Part shown: positions 13,588 through 59,274 of the stretch, piece by piece | How positions within the stretch are numbered: position 1 is the first letter of the stretch | Layout: every line of letters begins with the position of its first letter | Notes under the pieces: model-generated | Database searches by the model: none | What the model was told of the DNA's origin: nothing | The model's input: only the letters and a program-made list of their open reading frames with translations | Made by a program: the position numbers and the translations under genes | DNA from: Thermoanaerobaculia bacterium | GTDB taxonomy: Bacteria > Acidobacteriota > Thermoanaerobaculia > UBA5066 > Gp7-AA6 | Direction of reading: 5' to 3' | Assembly (NCBI GenBank): GCA_036505535.1 | Contig: DASXTI010000148.1 | Coordinates: 19,345 to 83,344 of the forward strand | DNA: 64,000 nt

Positions 13588-13645
13588 GTCGCGGCGCGAG
13601 GAGTCTCCGCGAAGTAACCAAGCGGAGGAGCCTCGCGCCGCGGTC
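13588..13645. terminator. long GC-rich hairpin between convergent genes (bidirectional terminator candidate)
   Basis: GTCGCGGCGCGAGGAGTCTCCGC - 11 nt - GCGGAGGAGCCTCGCGCCGCGG. The arms are complementary except for a few positions. The right arm touches the usp stop codon (13644..13646). Confidence 0.55.
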
Positions 13646-15327: not shown

Positions 15328-15396
15328 GAAATCCGTAGGGGCTGCCCTTGCGGCCGCCCGCGGGCGGGGACGAGCCCCGCCCCTACGACGGATTTC
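15328..15396. repeat. GC-rich long hairpin / REP-like element in the atpD-atpC spacer
   Basis: GAAATCCGTAGGGGC-TGCCCTTGCGGCCGCCCGCGGGCGGGGACGA-GCCCCgCCCCTACgaCGGATTTC. The core GTAGGGGCTGCCCTTGCGGCCGCCC recurs at 46681..46705. Confidence 0.6.
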
Positions 15397-16887: not shown

Positions 16888-16964
16888 GTTCCATGTTCCA
16901 AGTTCCATGTTCCAAGTTCCAGGTCGTATTTCCATCTTGGAACCTGGAATCTGAAACCTGGAAC
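16888..16964. repeat. heptamer-array inverted repeat (GTTCCAN x5 / NTGGAAY x4) in the atpG-atpD spacer
   Basis: GTTCCAT GTTCCAA GTTCCAT GTTCCAA GTTCCAG - 15 nt - TTGGAAC CTGGAAT CTGAAAC CTGGAAC. Confidence 0.85.
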
Positions 16965-17853: not shown

Positions 17854-17881
17854 TCAATCCCAAATCCAAAATCTAAAATCG
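17854..17881. repeat. one-armed tandem heptamer array (TCAATCC CAAATCC AAAATCT AAAATCG) in the atpA-atpG spacer
   Basis: Four consecutive 7-mers fill most of the 41-nt spacer. No inverted partner is seen. Confidence 0.7.
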
Positions 17882-21005: not shown

Positions 21006-21101
21006 CGGTAGTTGGTAGTCGGTAGTTGGGAGTCGGTAGTTGGTAGCGGGAATTAAAGCGACACCACCACTACGAACTATCGACTACCGACTACAGACTG
21101 A
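21006..21101. repeat. heptamer-array inverted repeat (YGGTAGT x6 / NNACTAY x5) between bactofilin stop and atpF2 start
   Basis: CGGTAGT TGGTAGT CGGTAGT TGGGAGT CGGTAGT TGGTAGC - 19 nt - CCACTAC GAACTAT CGACTAC CGACTAC AGACTGA. Confidence 0.85.
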
Positions 21102-21124
21102 ACCAATAAACCATTATTTGACAG

Positions 21125-21499
21125 TCACTTACGTGTCATCTCGACGAGGCGCGGCACGGCTTCGGATGTCATATCGCAAGAGCCCTGGAAGAACGCGCCT
21201 TCCTCGATCCGCAGCACCGGCGTGTGGAGCTCGGCGGTAACGCGTGCGCGGGGATGGATCTCGATTCGCTCGCTCGCGCGAACGGTCCCCTTGAGCGAGC
21301 CGTTGATGGAAAGCCGCTCGACATGGATCTCCGCGTCCACTTCGGCCGAGTCGCCCAGAATAAGCTCGCTTCCCGACGGGATGCTCCCTTCGAACTTTCC
21401 ATCGATGCGAAAGGTCTCTTCGAAAGAGAGCTCTCCCTTCAGATGGCTTCCCTTGTCGAGGAAACCATTGAGAGTCGCACCTTCACCGCGTGCTTTCAT
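21125..21499 (-). CDS. bactofilin (polymer-forming cytoskeletal protein)
   Basis: ATG at 21499 preceded by GAGGAGG (the track ORF starts at an upstream TTG, 21523). FLDKGSHLKGELSFEETFRIDGKFEGSI..SELILGDSAEVDAEIHVERLSINGSLKGTV.ASERIEIHPRARVTAELHTPVLRIEEGAFFQGSCDM is the DUF583 beta-helical repeat pattern. Confidence 0.85.
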   Translation of the reverse strand: MKARGEGATLNGFLDKGSHLKGELSFEETFRIDGKFEGSIPSGSELILGDSAEVDAEIHVERLSINGSLKGTVRASERIEIHPRARVTAELHTPVLRIEEGAFFQGSCDMTSEAVPRLVEMTRK

Positions 21500-23863: not shown

Positions 23864-25700
23864 GCGCGGAGATTATCGCGACGGCCGCCGGCGTCACGCC
23901 CGGGATGCGGGCGGCTTCGCCGAGGGTGCGTGGCTTTCGCCGCGAGCAGGTTTCCACCACCTCGCGTGAGAGGCCCGGAATGCCGGCGTAGTGAAATCCT
24001 TCTGGAATCCGGCGGGTCTCGAAGGGCTTCAGCCGCTCGAGCCGTTCGGTCTCCCGCCGAATGTATCCTTCGTATCGCACGCGTGTTTCCAGGATTTGCT
24101 TCTCCTCCCGGCTGAGGTTCGCAAAAAGGGCCGGGGCAATTCGCTCGAGGTCAGTCGCTGTTAACTCTTGTCTTTGCAATAGCTTATGGATTGTAACCGG
24201 CGTCTCGATACTTAGGCCGAGTCGCTCGAGCAAGAGCTCTCGGGTCTGGCGATTTGGATTGAGGACCTCCTTGCGAAGCGCCGCCTCGGCTGCTCGCAAG
24301 CGCTCCTCACTTCGCATCGCCAGAGCGTAAACGGCTTCGCCGATGAGTCCCAGGCGTCTGCCGTGCGGCAGTAGGCGCGGGAGAACGCTGTCGACGCCGA
24401 GAAGCAGCCGGTACTCGGCACGCGAGGTGAAGAGCCGGTACGGCTCCTCCAGCCCCTTCTTGGTCAGGTCGTCGATCATGACCGCCGCGTAGGCCTCGGA
24501 GCGCTCGAGAACGAAAGGCGCCTCTCCCCGCACGGCGCGGGCGGCATTGATGCCGGCGCAGATTCCCTGTGCGGCCGCTTCCTCGTAGCCGGAGGTCCCG
24601 TTGATCTGGCCGGCGAGAAAGAGGCCCGGGATCTCGAGTGTCTCGAGTGAGAGCCGCAGCTGATCGGGAAAGACGAAGTCGTACTCGACCGCGTAGCCCG
24701 GCCGGATCATCCGGGCGGTTTTCAGCCCCGGGATCTCGGCCAGGATCGCGCGCTGCACGTCCTCCGGAAGCGAGGTCGAGAGGCCGTTGATGTAAATCTC
24801 TTCCGAATCCCAGCCATCGGGCTCGAGAAAGATCGTGTGCTGGCTCTTCTCGGCGAACTTGACGACCTTGTCCTCGACGGACGGACAGTAGCGGGGGCCG
24901 ATGCCGGAAATCTGTCCCGAGTACATCGGGCTTCGATGCAGGTTCTCGCGGATGAGCGCGTGGACGCGGGGATTCGTCGCGGTCAGCCAGCAGAGCGCCT
25001 GACGCTCGGGGAGCCGGGTCGTCTTAAACGAGAACGGAACCGGGGGATCGTCCCCTTGCTGCGGGACGCAGGCGGCGTAGTCGACGCTGTCGCGGTGGAC
25101 GCGCGGCGGCGTGCCGGTCTTGAAGCGGCCGAGCCTCAGGCCGAGGCGCGCGAGAGAGGCGGAGAGACCGGTTGCCGCGGCCTCTCCGACGCGGCCCCCG
25201 CGGGTCTTTCGCTCGCCGGTGTGCATCAGGCCGTTCAAGAAGGTGCCGGTCGTGACGACGACCGCGGGCGCCTCGATCCGATCGCCGGCCGCCGTGACGG
25301 CGCCGCAGACCTTGCCGCGCTCCTCGAGCAGCTCCTCGGCCATCCCTTCGAGAAGCGTCAAGTTCGGTGTCGTGCCCAGCTTCCCGGCGGCCAGCCGAGC
25401 ATAGAGGCCCCGATCGCACTGCGCGCGGGGGCCCCACACGGCGGGCCCGCGGGAGCGATTGAGGATGCGGAACTGGATGCCGGCGGCGTCGGCGAGCTCT
25501 CCCATGACGCCGCCGAGCGCGTCGATCTCGCGGACCAGTTGACCCTTTGCCAGACCGCCGATCGCGGGATTGCACGACATTCTTCCGATGGCCGGCAAGT
25601 GCCCGGTCAGAAGCGCCGTGCGACGGCCCATGACCGCGCAGGCGTGCGCCGCCTCGATGCCCGCGTGACCGCCGCCGATGACCAAGACCTCGAATCTCAC
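23829..25700 (-). CDS. mnmG: tRNA uridine-5-carboxymethylaminomethyl synthesis enzyme MnmG (GidA)
   Basis: FEVLVIGGGHAGIEAA, MSCNPAIGGLAKGQLVREIDALGG, GPRYCPSVEDKVVKF, FLAGQINGTSGYEEAAAQG. Confidence 0.97.
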   Translation of the reverse strand: MRFEVLVIGGGHAGIEAAHACAVMGRRTALLTGHLPAIGRMSCNPAIGGLAKGQLVREIDALGGVMGELADAAGIQFRILNRSRGPAVWGPRAQCDRGLYARLAAGKLGTTPNLTLLEGMAEELLEERGKVCGAVTAAGDRIEAPAVVVTTGTFLNGLMHTGERKTRGGRVGEAAATGLSASLARLGLRLGRFKTGTPPRVHRDSVDYAACVPQQGDDPPVPFSFKTTRLPERQALCWLTATNPRVHALIRENLHRSPMYSGQISGIGPRYCPSVEDKVVKFAEKSQHTIFLEPDGWDSEEIYINGLSTSLPEDVQRAILAEIPGLKTARMIRPGYAVEYDFVFPDQLRLSLETLEIPGLFLAGQINGTSGYEEAAAQGICAGINAARAVRGEAPFVLERSEAYAAVMIDDLTKKGLEEPYRLFTSRAEYRLLLGVDSVLPRLLPHGRRLGLIGEAVYALAMRSEERLRAAEAALRKEVLNPNRQTRELLLERLGLSIETPVTIHKLLQRQELTATDLERIAPALFANLSREEKQILETRVRYEGYIRRETERLERLKPFETRRIPEGFHYAGIPGLSREVVETCSRRKPRTLGEAARIPGVTPAAVAIISAHVARGGGAASA

Positions 25701-25797
25701 GACCGGATTCTCTCCCAGAACCCTCCTCGGGCCTTGTTACGATCCACCCAAGAGACCGGGCCCGAATTGGCGGATCCCGGAATCCTCGGAGGCAGCT

Positions 25798-26694
25798 ATG
25801 AGAACGCTTTGTCGTCCATGCTTAGGCGTCGTCTGCGGGGCCCTGCTGGTATTGACGCTTCCTGCTCTCCTGGCAGCCGAGGAGGAACGGCTCGATCGAG
25901 CGCCTCGCCAGCCGGTCGTGCTCGCAAGCGGTGCCGTCTCCTACCCGCAGGGAACCAACCCGGACAGCATGCTCCAGCCAAAGAGCGGATACGGCATCGA
26001 TGATCTCCAGGTCGTCAACATCCCGTTTGCGGAGTTCCTCCCGCGCACCTCCTCCGGCGCGTATACCAGTCTCTGCTGCATCACCGAAGGGGCGCGGTGG
26101 GCGACCGGCGGCGACAACTTCTTAGTAGCCGGGATCGACGCCGGCCTCGTCCCCAACGGTGCCCATCTCGAACAGATCGCCTTCTACGTCGGGGATACCA
26201 ATGCTGTAACAGACCTCAACTTCGGCGGGTACCTCTGTCGGACCTGGGTGGATTCAGACGGTACCAATAGGGACCAGGACTGTCCCGTCTTCATCTCGAC
26301 CCTCTCGAACCCCGGGGACACGGTCATCACGGCCGCTCCGAACATCCCCGTCAGGTACCGGTATGACATCGACGGCGACAGCACCGCCGAGGTCGTCAAC
26401 TACATGGTCTTTGCCGAGTTCGGGATCAACGGACAGCAGGTCTACGACGGCTCCGTCCGACTGCGCCAGGCGCGGCTGCTGTTTCGGCGCCAGATCTCGC
26501 CAGCGCCGTCAACGCCAACTTTCAACGACGTCGCTCCGGGAGACTTCGGGTTTCAGCACATCGAGGCGCTGGCGGCCTCCGGGATCACGGGGGGGTGCGG
26601 CGGGGGCAACTACTGCCCGAATAGCTTCCTGACGCGGGCGCAGATGGCGGTGTTCCTCGCCAAGGCCCTGGGGCTCCACTGGCCGGCGTTTTAG
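25798..26694 (+). CDS. secreted protein with a C-terminal S-layer-homology (SLH) domain
   Basis: Start reassigned to ATG 25798 (MRTLCRPCLGVVCGALLVLTLPALLAA signal peptide). The C-terminus FNDVAPGDFGFQHIEALAASGITGGCGGGNYCPNSFLTRAQMAVFLAKAL matches the SLH motif (F.DV......I..L...GI..G......P...LTRAQ.A..L..A). The N-terminal ~230 aa are unrecognised. Confidence 0.75.
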   Translation: MRTLCRPCLGVVCGALLVLTLPALLAAEEERLDRAPRQPVVLASGAVSYPQGTNPDSMLQPKSGYGIDDLQVVNIPFAEFLPRTSSGAYTSLCCITEGARWATGGDNFLVAGIDAGLVPNGAHLEQIAFYVGDTNAVTDLNFGGYLCRTWVDSDGTNRDQDCPVFISTLSNPGDTVITAAPNIPVRYRYDIDGDSTAEVVNYMVFAEFGINGQQVYDGSVRLRQARLLFRRQISPAPSTPTFNDVAPGDFGFQHIEALAASGITGGCGGGNYCPNSFLTRAQMAVFLAKALGLHWPAF

Positions 26695-26746: not shown

Positions 26747-28108
26747 CTACTTGCCGATGCAGAACGTGTCGAACAGGCGCCGCAGCACGTCCTCGGATGT
26801 CGTCTCACCGACGAGATCGGCCAGCGCGTCGAGCGCGGCGTGGCAGTGCGTGACGGCGTACTCGGGCGAGAGTCCCCTCGCCAGCGCCTCGCTCGTCTCG
26901 ATGGCTGCCGAGCGTGCCCGCTCGACCAAGTCGCGCTGCCGAAGCGAGCCGAGCACCTCGGAGGTCTCCTCGGTCGAGATATCGGCGGCGATCGTATCGG
27001 AAAGAAGCGCGCGCAGGCGTTCGCCGGTCTCTAGGCCCAGGCCACAGAGCGGACGGGCGTCCCTTCGCACCGAACTCCATCCTTCCGGCATCCGGTCGAT
27101 CTTGTTGGCGATCAAGATCCGGGGCTTTCCGTCGAGGAGCGCCAGCGCCGCTTCATCCTCCGCTTCGAAGCCCTCGAACGCGTCGAAGACGTAGAGGATG
27201 GCGTCGGCCCTCTCGGCCTCTTCGCGCGCGCGCTCCACCCCGATCTTCTCGACGATATCGGTCGTCGCGCGCAGTCCCGCCGTGTCGATCAGTGTGACGG
27301 GTATCCCTCGGATGTCGACGACCCCTTCGAGGGTGTCCCGCGTGGTCCCGGGAATCTCGGTCACGATCGCGCGCGCGACGCCCAGCAGGGCGTTGAAAAG
27401 CGTCGACTTGCCCGCGTTTGGGCGCCCAAGGATCGCGACCCGGCATCCGTTCGAGAGCAGACGACCCGTCTCGTAGGTGGCGGCGAGTCGCTCGAGGGCT
27501 TCCACCGCAGCCGCCAGGCGTGTCGATACCGCGGGATCCACGCCCTCCCCCACGTCTTCGGAAAAATCGATCGTCGCCGCCAGCCCCGCCGAGGCGGAAA
27601 GCAGGTCCTCGCGAACGCGTTCGAGCCGTTCCGAGAGTCCCCCCTCGAGCCGGCGCGCGGAGAAACGAGCGGCGGCGGGCGTCTTCGCCTCGATCAGCTC
27701 GCGGACGGCCTCCGCGCGCACGAGATCGATCTTCCCGGAGCGAAACGCGCGCTCCGTGAACTCGCCCGGACGGGCCGGCCGCGCTCCGGCCTCGGCGGCC
27801 GCCTGCAACAGCCTCTGGATTGCCGCCGGGCTCCCATGCACCGAGAGCTCGGCGACGTCCTCGCCGGTCGAGGATGCCGGCTTAGCGAAGAAGGTGGCCA
27901 GGCCCGTGTCGATCGTCTCTCCCGCGGCGTCCAAAAAAGAGACGAGATGAGGCCGCCGCGGCCGGAGCGACGCGGGCAGGCCCGGCGCGAGAGTGGCGAG
28001 GATTCTCGGAGCCTCCGGGCCGGAAAGCCGCACGACGGCTAGGGCCGAGCGGCCGGCGGGCGTGGCGAGGGCGACGATGGTGTCGAGGAAGCGAGAATCA
28101 GGAAACAT
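26747..28108 (-). CDS. mnmE: tRNA modification GTPase MnmE (TrmE)
   Basis: DTIVALATPAGRSALAVVRLSG, G1 GRPNAGKSTLFNAL, TTRD, DTAGLR, C-terminal CIGK. Confidence 0.96.
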   Translation of the reverse strand: MFPDSRFLDTIVALATPAGRSALAVVRLSGPEAPRILATLAPGLPASLRPRRPHLVSFLDAAGETIDTGLATFFAKPASSTGEDVAELSVHGSPAAIQRLLQAAAEAGARPARPGEFTERAFRSGKIDLVRAEAVRELIEAKTPAAARFSARRLEGGLSERLERVREDLLSASAGLAATIDFSEDVGEGVDPAVSTRLAAAVEALERLAATYETGRLLSNGCRVAILGRPNAGKSTLFNALLGVARAIVTEIPGTTRDTLEGVVDIRGIPVTLIDTAGLRATTDIVEKIGVERAREEAERADAILYVFDAFEGFEAEDEAALALLDGKPRILIANKIDRMPEGWSSVRRDARPLCGLGLETGERLRALLSDTIAADISTEETSEVLGSLRQRDLVERARSAAIETSEALARGLSPEYAVTHCHAALDALADLVGETTSEDVLRRLFDTFCIGK

Positions 28109-28206
28109 TGCCGATTGCCGATTGCCGATTGGCGATTGGCGATTGTGAAGCCCTCAAGGTCTTCTAAGCCTAATCGGCAATCATCAATCGGAAATCATCA
28201 ATCTGA
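28107..28206. repeat. heptamer-array inverted repeat (ATTGSCG x6 / AATCNNN x5) filling the jag-mnmE spacer
   Basis: ATTGCCG ATTGCCG ATTGCCG ATTGGCG ATTGGCG ATTGTGA - 23 nt - AATCGGC AATCATC AATCGGA AATCATC AATCTGA. The first unit overlaps the mnmE start codon (28106..28108). Confidence 0.88.
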
Positions 28207-28210
28207 TCCG

Positions 28211-28906
28211 CTACCCTCTCTTCAACCTCACCTCTACCCTCTTCAAGAACCCCTCTCCCTCACTTTCCGTCTCGACCTCCGGGTCCTCGGCCAGCGCGAG
28301 ATGGACGAGCCGCCGCTCCCACGGCGCGAGCGGCGGAAGGATCTGCGGCCGGCGCGTCCGGCGGACTTCGTCGGCCGAGTGATGCGCGAGCTCCTCCAGT
28401 GCGTCTTTGCGATGAGCGCGGAATCCTTCCGCATCCAGACGCGGATGGACGGGGGAGCCGAGGCGCTTCGACGCGATCCGGCCCACCAGAACTTCCAGTC
28501 CGGTCAACCCCTCGCCTTTGTTCGCGAGGAGGGGCTCGACGTCGTCTCCGAAGAGCTCGAACAGCATCTCGTCCTCGGCAGACTCCCGGCGGCGGATCTC
28601 GACGAGCAGCCCGGCCGCCGATAGCAGCTCGGTCAAGGTGGACTCGACCATCGCCACGGCTTCCGCGCTGGTGGAGCCGGGCAACGGCTGCTCGCGAGGC
28701 GCCCGGTCGAGCGCCTCGGAATCCTGACTCTCGATACTCGACTCTCGGCTCTCGACTCTTTCTTCCACCTCGATCTCCACGACGCGCCCGCCCCAGAAGG
28801 ATTTCTCGTCGCGGACCACCGAGTACTTGAGCTCCGAGGCCGGCCTTCCGAGAGCCCTTGCGGCGCCCTCGACCGCTTCCTGTTCCGTCTTCGCTTCGTA
28901 CCTCAT
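28211..28906 (-). CDS. jag: Jag/KhpB-type RNA-binding protein (Jag_N + KH + R3H)
   Basis: Position after yidC. The C-terminal R3H region is ..LPPLAPWERRLVHLALAEDPEVETESEGEGFLKRVEV. Confidence 0.8.
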   Translation of the reverse strand: MRYEAKTEQEAVEGAARALGRPASELKYSVVRDEKSFWGGRVVEIEVEERVESRESSIESQDSEALDRAPREQPLPGSTSAEAVAMVESTLTELLSAAGLLVEIRRRESAEDEMLFELFGDDVEPLLANKGEGLTGLEVLVGRIASKRLGSPVHPRLDAEGFRAHRKDALEELAHHSADEVRRTRRPQILPPLAPWERRLVHLALAEDPEVETESEGEGFLKRVEVRLKRG

Positions 28907-31340: not shown

Positions 31341-31426
31341 GTTCCACGTTCCATGTTCCAGGTTCCAGGACGCCGATGTTCCTGCGATATGGCTTGACCT
31401 GGAACTTGGAACCTGAAACTTGGAAC
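31341..31426. repeat. heptamer-array inverted repeat (GTTCCAN x4 / YTGRAAC x4) in the rpmH-dnaA divergent spacer
   Basis: GTTCCAC GTTCCAT GTTCCAG GTTCCAG - 30 nt - CTGGAAC TTGGAAC CTGAAAC TTGGAAC. Confidence 0.85.
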
Positions 31427-31468: not shown

Positions 31469-31497
31469 TTCCACAGTTGTGGAAAACTTGTGGAAAT
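31469..31497. promoter_or_regulatory. cluster of three DnaA-box-like motifs upstream of dnaA
   Basis: cTTCCACAg TTGTGGAAAAc TTGTGGAAATc. Each matches the TTATCCACA / TGTGGATAA consensus at 7-8 of 9 positions. They lie 14-42 nt upstream of the dnaA ATG. Confidence 0.6.
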
Positions 31498-31510
31498 CCG
31501 GCAGCTCGTG

Positions 31511-37732: not shown

Positions 37733-37822
37733 CGGTAGTTGGTAGTCGGTGGTCCGTAGTTCGAAGAAACGCGCTGCCGGCGGGTCCACAACGACAGACT
37801 ACAGACTACGGACTACGGACTA
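37733..37822. repeat. heptamer-array inverted repeat (YGGTAGT-type x4 / CRGACTA x4) filling the gyrB-gyrA spacer
   Basis: CGGTAGT TGGTAGT CGGTGGT CCGTAGT - 34 nt - CAGACTA CAGACTA CGGACTA CGGACTA. Same unit family as 21006..21101. Confidence 0.85.
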
Positions 37823-41411: not shown

Positions 41412-41531
41412 GTTCTCGATTTTCTCCCGCCGAGTTGTTGAATTCTACGGTAGTTTTCTATTAACTGTCTGTATTTAAATCAAGTTATTAAACATAAACT
41501 ACGGAATATGGAAGACCCTGCTGACGGCTGA
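41412..41531. promoter_or_regulatory. most AT-rich spacer of the window, with an inverted repeat; probable promoter/operator of the MocR-pdxST unit
   Basis: cTACGGTAGTTTTctattaactgtctgtatttaaatcaagttattaaacATAAACTACGGAat. CGGTAGTTT (41445..41457 region) and its near-complement AAACTACGG (41494..41505 region) flank a 36-nt AT-rich core. Confidence 0.45.
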
Positions 41532-43019: not shown

Positions 43020-43088
43020 GTTTCAGGTTTCAAGTTTCAAGTTTCAGGATCGACTCTGACTTGGAACCTGAAACCTGAAACTTGGAAC
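43020..43088. repeat. heptamer-array inverted repeat (GTTTCAN x4 / YTGRAAC x4) between the MocR gene and pdxS
   Basis: GTTTCAG GTTTCAA GTTTCAA GTTTCAG - 13 nt - TTGGAAC CTGAAAC CTGAAAC TTGGAAC. It starts 7 nt after the stop codon and ends 22 nt before the pdxS ATG (SD GGGAGG lies between). Confidence 0.85.
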
Positions 43089-45359: not shown

Positions 45360-45438
45360 ATTGACGATTGCCGATTGGCGATTGATGATTAGTACCTCGT
45401 GTTAACAATCGACAATCGGAAATCGACAATCATCAATC
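45360..45438. repeat. heptamer-array inverted repeat (ATTGNNG x4 / AATCNNN x5)
   Basis: ATTGACG ATTGCCG ATTGGCG ATTGATG att - 16 nt - AATCGAC AATCGGA AATCGAC AATCATC AATCCTT. Same family as 28107..28206 and 55474..55552. Confidence 0.85.
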
Positions 45439-55473: not shown

Positions 55474-55552
55474 ATTGCCGATTGTCGATTGCCGATTGAA
55501 GATTGGGCCGGCCTTTCAATCGCCAATCATCAATCGCCAATCGGCAATCTAA
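55474..55552. repeat. heptamer-array inverted repeat (ATTGNNG x5 / AATCNNN x5) filling the gap between convergent topA and radical-SAM stops
   Basis: ATTGCCG ATTGTCG ATTGCCG ATTGAAG ATTGGGC - 9 nt - AATCGCC AATCATC AATCGCC AATCGGC AATCTAA. It begins at the base after the topA TAA and overlaps the minus-strand stop at 55549..55551. Confidence 0.88.
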
Positions 55553-59204: not shown

Positions 59205-59274
59205 GGGGTCAGGTCTGTGAACTGTGATCTTGTTGTGTGCCCCACCGTGAATCACAGATCACAGACCTGACCCC
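59205..59274. repeat. strong inverted repeat with CTGTGAN heptamer periodicity in a divergent spacer
   Basis: GGGGTCAGGTCTGTGAACTGTGATC - 17 nt - GTGAATCACAGATCACAGACCTGACCCC. The outer 16 nt are perfectly complementary. Confidence 0.85.

Follow-up and report, generated by a model that had tools for sequence, protein, structure and literature searches.

Paired inverted heptamer arrays in the intergenic spacers of an acidobacterium and the fixed order of their arms across phyla

The function and origin of tandem heptamers have been in question since the short tandemly repeated repetitive (STRR) sequences were described in 1990, and the one detailed study of heptamer arrays that occur as inverted pairs invoked G-quadruplexes. 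That study concerned Xanthomonas, in which about 185 arrays of GGGAATC, or more generally (GGGANTN)n, are present per genome, 89–93% of them intergenic and with a preference for four units (Rehm et al. 2015, PLoS One, PMC4692102). About 40% of the arrays lie in convergent pairs and both length and sequence vary between species; in Xanthomonas campestris and X. axonopodis there are 70–75 such pairs with the potential to form a stem-loop or a cruciform, most of which are transcribed (PMC4692102). The authors obtained G-quadruplexes from GGGAATC oligonucleotides in vitro and favoured these structures while calling the function unknown, and they recorded, for GGGAATC only, a geometry in which the sense strand is G-rich after stop codons and C-rich before start codons (PMC4692102). 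Here we analyse a 64-kb stretch of DNA (the window) from an uncultured Thermoanaerobaculia-like acidobacterium. Its closest relatives carry the annotation Thermoanaerobaculia and share no more than 71% identity with it in MnmE and 79% in AtpG. In this window the spacer between jag and mnmE (28107–28206) and seven others each hold two arrays of a heptamer in inverted orientation around a unique loop. The initial annotation of the window had found no described counterpart for these hairpins, but the convergent GGGAATC pairs of Xanthomonas are one (PMC4692102); the architecture is already published, and what is new is the window's heptamers, their host and the multiplicity of families.

The window elements resemble the Xanthomonas pairs in their GC-rich genome, heterogeneous heptamers, arms of about four units, intergenic position near gene ends and convergent pairing, and the same G-rich-first arm order was verified here in GGGAATC loci. 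They differ in that the window heptamers (ATTGNNG, GTTCCAN and YGGTAGT) carry no tract of three or four G per unit, in that several families occur in one genome, in the acidobacterial host, and in that the spacer is filled to both codon boundaries. The elements belong to a broader class, that of the heptameric simple-sequence repeats of the STRR type and of the long simple-sequence repeats (LSSRs), among which heptamers are the most abundant in prokaryotes as Mrazek et al. (2007) describe them, with polymerase slippage as their proposed origin. Like LSSRs and STRRs, the window arrays consist of tandem 7-nt units in excess of chance, dispersed and with a strong intergenic bias. The STRRs of heterocystous cyanobacteria are, however, described as direct arrays, unlike the paired window elements, and only a few inverted pairs were found in Nostoc (Rehm et al., PMC4692102). 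No tandem copy of the STRR consensus units CCCCAGT, TTGGTCA or CAACAGT lies on either strand of the window.

Repetitive extragenic palindromic (REP) sequences, bacterial interspersed mosaic elements (BIMEs) and REPINs are likewise intergenic, transcribed, hairpin-forming repeats in operons and at gene ends, and REP and BIME sequences have roles in the protection of mRNA 3' ends and in the binding of gyrase or IHF. The comparison with STRRs and REP/BIME hairpins, drawn in the initial annotation, is apt. However, REPs are single imperfect palindromes of 20–40 nt with a family consensus, a conserved 5' tetranucleotide and a link to a RAYT (IS200/IS605-like) transposase, whereas the arms of the window elements are 7-nt arrays with no single consensus; three or four unrelated heptamer families were found and no consensus palindrome is shared among them. 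The TAACTGA repeats of marine Beggiatoaceae, cyanobacteria and Bacteroidetes come as 2–6 units that directly precede start codons, where they often stand in for the ribosome-binding site, ribosomal-protein operons included, with a patchy phylogeny and with 169 direct sets against one indirect set (MacGregor 2015, PMC4679880). They share with the window elements the placement of heptamer arrays at start codons and the patchy distribution, but they represent a single heptamer, are almost all direct and form no hairpin. The genome paper on Geobacter metallireducens describes elements of four GGACCGG and five MTYCTGA units. When the array sequences were searched for in the literature, the only hits were unrelated primers, and no Rfam family reached its gathering threshold anywhere in the 64 kb, whichever strand was scanned.

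Periodicity, pairing and position of the arrays

A self-match scan of the window, in which an array was called when at least 16 of 21 positions matched (15 of 21 in a looser variant), returned 17 period-7 arrays, whereas periods 5, 6, 8, 9, 10 and 11 gave none. In a comparison set of 80 mnmE neighbourhoods from other genomes (927 kb in total) 22 period-7 arrays were found, such that the window is approximately 11-fold enriched, and the 7-nt period put forward at the outset is borne out. The focal jag-mnmE element reads exactly as first described, with three ATTGCCG units, two ATTGGCG units and one ATTGTGA, a loop of 23 nt and five AATCNNN units. The elements are numbered E1 to E10 in Table 1. 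Eight are inverted pairs of heptamer arrays and one (E2) is single-armed, as stated, while E10 is a borderline member, being a palindrome with two heptamers per arm. A sequence at 41445–41505, proposed as a degenerate pair, does not belong to the elements, since it shows no periodicity of 7 nt and does not fold significantly (z about −1). At every paired locus of the initial annotation Tandem Repeats Finder reported period-7 arrays, with a period-14 reading often scoring better.

The arms of the eight clear pairs have 4–6 units built on a conserved core with 1–2 variable positions per unit, and they are separated by loops of 8–33 nt. The arms are 77–96% complementary, with mismatches falling mostly at the variable heptamer positions, and the longest inverted repeats of the window are almost all heptamer elements. 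At nine loci (the eight pairs and E10) long hairpins are predicted on both strands, with z scores of −3.2 to −8.8 relative to dinucleotide shuffles. The elements are less GC-rich than their flanks (0.32–0.58 versus 0.61–0.70), as had been noted. One architecture, inverted 7-nt arrays around a unique loop, is thus built from several unrelated heptamers in one genome. The suspicion that the elements could be decaying copies of one REP sequence or miniature inverted-repeat transposable element (MITE) is not upheld, since heptamer, number of units and loop vary from copy to copy, and neither a target-site duplication nor a conserved terminus was detected. Even within a family, copies in the window differ in the number of heptamer units, the variable bases and the loop, and none are nearly identical. 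The variable positions agree more between the two arms of one element than between loci (0.31 versus 0.10 in the ATTG family and 0.54 versus 0.41 in the GTTCCAN family), but this agreement is little or no better than when units are shuffled inside the element, which indicates that there is no strict mirror order. The two arms of an element are thus related, yet each appears to turn over its own units.

The arrays had been called strictly intergenic. This description holds for 15 of the 18 period-7 arrays found at the 15/21 threshold (P about 6e-13, on the rough and unmeasured estimate that some 10% of the window is non-coding), but it overlooked an array inside the jag coding sequence (Table 1). 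The array encodes linker residues 49–61 of a low-complexity, hypervariable segment that has other lengths in relatives, and its GAGAGTC unit is the same heptamer as that of the intergenic hairpins of one relative, L205, described below; a coding linker that tolerates such arrays can therefore take them up. The spacers that carry elements are approximately 100 nt each and nearly the whole of each is taken up by the element, whose edges lie 0–23 nt from the upstream stop codon and 0–48 nt from the next start codon.

The arrays are not an assembly artefact, because the same sequence was assembled independently, without gaps and at 99.6–100% identity, in four population contigs (three JGI metagenomes and one Logan run). 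Among these contigs no insertion, deletion or single-nucleotide polymorphism (SNP) was found in E4 and E5, the two paired elements covered. The initial annotation had suggested that G:U pairs would reveal the functional strand. In the six co-directional spacers, however, 12 G:U pairs occur in the sense RNA and 11 in the antisense, and folding energy favours each strand three times. With G:U pairs and folding energies balanced between strands, there is no sign that the transcribed strand is selected.

Turnover in relatives and arm order across phyla

Five syntenic loci were compared by aligning filled with empty orthologous spacers. In relatives L207, L208 and L210 no arrays are present, and the spacers are reduced to 12–16 nt (jag-mnmE), 15–23 nt (atpA-atpG) and 13–18 nt (atpG-atpD). 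Relative L205 has elements of its own, namely a GTGTCGN/CGACACN hairpin between jag and mnmE, GTCGAGR/YCTCGAC hairpins both between mnmE and gidA and between the bactofilin gene and atpF', and a single AACTGTC array between atpA and atpG. Three of these spacers also bear an element in the window, though one built from another heptamer. Protein identities place L205 as the sister of L210 (AtpG 90% identical) with the window as the outgroup, and because L210 is free of arrays, the L205 elements must be younger than the split of these two lineages or must have been lost quickly in L210. It is for this reason unlikely that elements occupying the same spacer in the window and in L205 were inherited from a common ancestor, the heptamers being different as well. 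The presence of separate hairpins in L205 and of none in its sister shows that turnover is fast, and the elements are lineage-specific. The filled-versus-empty alignments reveal neither target-site duplications nor conserved termini. Moreover, the atpA-atpG array of L205 terminates in sequence that L210 keeps beside its start codon (ACTGAYYC-ATG), where L210 has a two-unit proto-array, and this suggests that the L205 array grew in place.

The bactofilin-atpF' spacer holds one further shared feature. GGTTTATT stands just before the differing arrays in the window (21100–21125) and in L205 (6745–6760) and does not occur in L207, L208 or L210; its presence in both is not accounted for when shared ancestry is rejected. 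All five lineages share conserved sequence on either side of this spacer, a downstream CTGTGCTATTSATCCGCGGTTTCG block among it. In the same relative a sulfatase gene lies between atpD and atpC and splits the atp operon (L205 12449–14818, L206 3023–5416), an insertion present neither in the window nor in the other relatives.

Exact-pattern scans for four heptamer families were extended to genomes, metagenome contigs and viral contigs. (ATTGNNG)n arrays occur in Acidobacteriota, Planctomycetota, Chloroflexota, Verrucomicrobiota, Gemmatimonadota, Bacteroidota, Desulfobacterota and Cyanobacteria, and the phylum range of (GTTCCAN)n is similar. GGGAATC arrays were found in Xanthomonadales, Gemmatimonadaceae, Thermoanaerobaculia and Cyanobacteria, and (GGTAGTN)n in metagenome contigs that carry no taxonomy. 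In IMG/VR contigs classified as viral (L331–L450, including giant-virus bins), which may be true phage sequence or host fragments, ATTGNNG arrays are present and 30 of 140 have a downstream inverted partner.

In which order do the two arms of a pair occur? For ATTGNNG the inverted partner lies downstream in 40 cases and upstream in one among genome contigs, and downstream in all 30 paired cases (upstream in none) among viral contigs. The corresponding downstream and upstream counts are 28 and 0–1 for GTTCCAN, 26–29 and 0 for GGGAATC, and 7–9 and 0 for GGTAGTN, such that the four families together give approximately 130 downstream partners and at most two upstream. A generic detector run on 690 fetched loci returned 1730 arrays, 153 inverted pairs and 38 heptamer clusters, and within clusters 135 of 140 pairs have one arm order. 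G outnumbers C in the 5' arm of 29 clusters versus 5 with the opposite bias, and G+T outnumbers A+C there in 29 versus 6, with no bias of T against A. The polarity is therefore fixed: the inverted partner is downstream and the 5' arm is usually G-rich, whichever strand is read. This fixed arm polarity across families and phyla is new here.

Inverted pairs make up about a quarter to a third of the arrays in the survey, and the median is about four units per array in all surveyed families, including those unable to form G-quadruplexes. The orientation of single arrays was judged by a local coding-frame test, which replaced a noisier analysis based on gene calls. In all four gene-orientation contexts a single array has its G-rich strand on top when it lies beside the left gene and on the bottom when it lies beside the right gene; in terms of the sense strand, an array that follows a stop codon is G-rich and one that precedes a start codon is C-rich. 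With respect to transcription the G-rich strand is sense in 119 single arrays and antisense in 115. The polarity is also seen in 20 of 24 cyanobacterial loci. The near-invariant arm order is a sequence-independent rule that any explanation must satisfy, and the interest of the elements lies mainly in this cross-phylum polarity.

Very long arrays of the same heptamers, with 18 to more than 25 units, were also encountered (L037 5814–6100 in a Bacteroidales metagenome-assembled genome, L246 6489–6599 in one from Verrucomicrobiales, and L103 40–176). They contrast with the 4–6 units typical of paired elements.

Explanations for the paired arrays

The hairpins must be transcribed through, because atpD, gyrA and mnmE lie downstream of them in essential operons (atp, gyrBA and jag-mnmE). 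We give an even chance to the reading that we favour, in which the elements are paired inverted heptamer arrays of the Xanthomonas kind that are amplified locally, tolerated by looping out and REP/BIME-like in their effect. A local 7-nt seed would be amplified in tandem by slippage, with arrays growing in place, and each arm would continue to turn over its units. An inverted pair would persist since the self-complementary insert could fold out of the mRNA as an imperfect hairpin of 25–35 bp, and this fold would leave the upstream stop and the downstream start roughly 5–30 nt apart. We propose that a tightly packed operon tolerates the insert because folding keeps the two codons close. By analogy with REP and BIME sequences, the hairpin might then act as a barrier to 3' exonucleases; alternatively, it could modulate translational coupling and termination at the adjacent stop codon.

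Several results weigh against this account. Neither the G:U counts nor the folding energies prefer the sense strand, a result equally expected of an element that is neutral or acts at the DNA level. If local slippage were random and an inverted duplication came after it, both arm orders should occur, whereas one order was observed in the 135 of 140 pairs counted above; together with the excess of G over C in the 5' arm of 29 of 34 clusters, this points to a directional mechanism or to selection that the favoured account lacks. The recurrence of ATTGNNG, GTTCCAN, GGTAGTN and GGGAATC in many phyla and in viral contigs is poorly explained by independent local seeding. Moreover, no Shine-Dalgarno sequence follows the hairpin ahead of mnmE and gyrA, and for this reason these genes may need the element for their expression instead of simply tolerating it. 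Finally, the RNA-level effect on the transcripts is itself a prediction from sequence.

An unlikely alternative places the function in DNA, such that a nucleoid-associated, topoisomerase or recombination protein would read the arrays toward the spacer centre, by analogy with gyrase and IHF at the BIMEs of Escherichia coli and with the oriented Chi and KOPS sites. Such sites would fit a polarity that is fixed relative to the spacer centre, in pairs and single arrays alike and in cyanobacteria too, and they would fit hairpins with no sense-strand signal. It can also be deduced from the sequence that a break in the loop would, with this arm order, give G/T-rich 3' tails on both sides. However, one sequence-specific reader would be insufficient for the four or more unrelated heptamers in one genome and the 38 clusters overall, units spaced 7 bp apart do not keep in phase with the helical turn of DNA, and no candidate protein was identified.

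It is improbable, though less so than the readings that follow, that the elements are non-autonomous mobile elements similar to MITEs or REPINs, with terminal inverted repeats made of transposase-binding heptamer arrays and mobilisation in trans. The fixed arm order of each heptamer family across phyla would follow from mobility, and so would the variable centre, the empty sites in relatives, the patchy phylogeny and the presence in viral contigs. Filled sites show no target-site duplication or conserved terminus relative to empty sites, however, and the copies differ in units, variable bases and loops with none nearly identical, as far as the window is concerned. Single arrays seem to grow from a local seed, and no transposase gene was found among the scanned genes of the 64-kb window.

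Somewhat more doubtful is a reading of the arrays as mRNA binding sites, in which each heptad would contact one protein subunit and the complex would control translation of the adjacent gene. Cold-shock or S1-type domains could serve as models, as could HutP-like recognition of UAG-N4; GGTAGTN arrays display UAG every 7 nt, and HutP recognises UAG at that spacing. In addition, the arrays abut start and stop codons, with E4 and E6 replacing the Shine-Dalgarno region, and the same argument has been made for the TAACTGA repeats (MacGregor 2015, PMC4679880). Against these points, a genome with four or more unrelated heptamers would need several heptad readers, arrays in paired elements are base-paired rather than accessible, and single arrays have no sense bias.

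There is also a slim chance that the polarity has been left behind by a directional process, so far unrecognised and shared by many bacterial phyla, in which the G/T-rich strand runs 5' to 3' from the gene border to the spacer centre. One candidate is a synthesis, by addition of repeats or by slippage, that would lengthen the 3' ends of intergenic breaks before these are joined; the outcome would have the polarity of fused telomeres. Telomeres fused head-to-head, (TTAGGG)n-(CCCTAA)n, have the G-rich array first and its complement second on either strand. The likeness is an analogy of polarity only; here there is no telomerase or linear replicon, the arrays have 4–6 units, and a unique loop separates the arms. 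Alternatively, the process may be a recombination-linked selection whereby only palindromes with G/T-rich 3' tails are repaired and kept. If a directional process is indeed responsible, the arrays would be markers of a new DNA-maintenance pathway and not passive simple-sequence DNA.

G-quadruplexes, the interpretation given to the Xanthomonas and Nostoc repeats, are a very remote explanation for the window elements. GGGAATC oligonucleotides do form them in vitro (PMC4692102), and GGTAGT arrays, with GG every 7 nt, have two-tetrad potential. However, the elements contain no part of a motif with four G3 tracts, weak GG-type motifs are confined to the GGTAGT and GTTCCA families, and ATTGNNG and GTTCCAN arrays have no G-tracts, so the sequence refutes this reading for two of the three window families. 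Because heptamers that cannot form quadruplexes show the same preference for about four units and the same inverted pairing, quadruplexes cannot be the general explanation. The only published functional idea thus does not generalise, and the same architecture is here built from heptamers unable to form quadruplexes in essential operons of an acidobacterium.

The remaining candidates were rejected. Intrinsic terminators would need other stems, as those of the elements are GC-poor and have no U-tracts; none was called as a terminator, and terminator-like sites in the window number 14 compared with 15.0 ± 4.6 in shuffles. Avoidance of Rho, with the C-rich arm second and paired at once, was dropped as a general cause because the polarity is also present in the loci of cyanobacteria, which lack Rho (PMC12642595). 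Back-up stop codons or avoidance of start codons do not apply, since GGGAATC and GTTCCAN units contain no stop and E1 has none in any frame. A contingency locus of hypermutable simple-sequence repeats is contradicted by the constant length in the four population contigs and by flanking genes with housekeeping roles.

Individual elements and neighbouring sequence

Table 1 Positions and composition of the heptamer elements in the window
Element	Position	Strand	Location	Composition or boundaries
E1	16888–16964		atpG-atpD spacer, atp operon	(GTTCCAN)x5, loop 13 nt, (NTGGAAC)x4
E2, single-armed	17854–17881	−	fills atpA-atpG spacer	sense CGATTTT AGATTTT GGATTTG GGATTGA
E3	21006–21101		bactofilin-atpF' spacer	(YGGTAGT)x6, loop 19 nt, (ACTACNG-type)x5
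E4, focal element	28107–28206		fills jag-mnmE spacer	(ATTGNNG)x6, loop 23 nt, (AATCNNN)x5
E4 arms	5' arm 28107–28148; 3' arm 28172–28206			jag stop 28211, mnmE start 28108
jag array, single-armed	28726–28759	−	jag coding sequence, linker residues 49–61	sense GAGAGTC x5
E5	31341–31426		rpmH-dnaA spacer, divergent	(GTTCCAN)x4, loop 30 nt, (NTGGAAC)x4
E6	37733–37822		fills gyrB-gyrA spacer	(YGGTAGT)x4, loop 33 nt, (CRGACTA)x4
E7	43020–43088		GntR/aminotransferase regulator-pdxS spacer	(GTTTCAN)x4, loop 13 nt, (NTGRAAC)x4
E8	45360–45438		enoyl-CoA hydratase/N-acetyltransferase-like spacer	(ATTGNNG)x4.5, loop 13 nt, (CAATCNN)x5
E9	55474–55552		topA/radical-SAM spacer, convergent	(ATTGNNG)x5, loop 8–11 nt, (CAATCNN)x5
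E10, borderline	59205–59274		divergent spacer	24-nt 96%-complementary palindrome, two CTGTGAN units per arm

The elements meet their neighbouring genes in different ways. The ATG of mnmE comes from the last E4 unit in the mRNA, GGCAATG, with no Shine-Dalgarno sequence ahead of it, and E6 ends 4 nt before the gyrA ATG, likewise with no Shine-Dalgarno sequence. Between E1 and the start of atpD lies a Shine-Dalgarno-like GAGAGG. The sense strand of E2 is G-rich immediately after the stop codon, and E9 constitutes its entire spacer from stop to stop (topA 55473, radical-SAM gene 55549).

E5 is flanked by a promoter-like site of rpmH and by a DnaA-box-like cluster at the dnaA start. The former is a sigma-70-like match, TTGACT-17-TAGGAT, on the minus strand (31329–31301) and adjoins E5; the latter consists of TTTTCCACA / TGTGGAAA at 31470–31500. 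The GTTCCAC units of E5 were considered as DnaA boxes and rejected, their resemblance to the local variant TTTTCCACA being weak. The window probably spans the replication origin, since the minimum of cumulative GC skew falls at approximately 32–34 kb.

The sequence at 41445–41505 has 28% GC and is AT-rich, promoter-type DNA upstream of the gene for the GntR/aminotransferase (MocR/PdxR-like) regulator, with pdxS as the next gene. This stretch probably serves as promoter/operator region.

In the comparison of the window with population contig L201, 37 of 53 SNPs are concentrated at 24331–25968, which covers the 5' part of gidA and an opposite-strand open reading frame with an SLH domain (25678–26694) that does not occur in the mnmE-gidA spacer of relatives. 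Recombination may have produced this SNP-rich segment as a tract, or it may be an insertion that varies. Palindromes of the ordinary GC-rich kind, lacking a heptamer period, were also observed at two places, one at 13590–13642 between the convergent amidohydrolase and Usp genes and one at 15334–15387 in the 130-nt atpD-atpC spacer, and conventional hairpins therefore coexist with the heptamer type.

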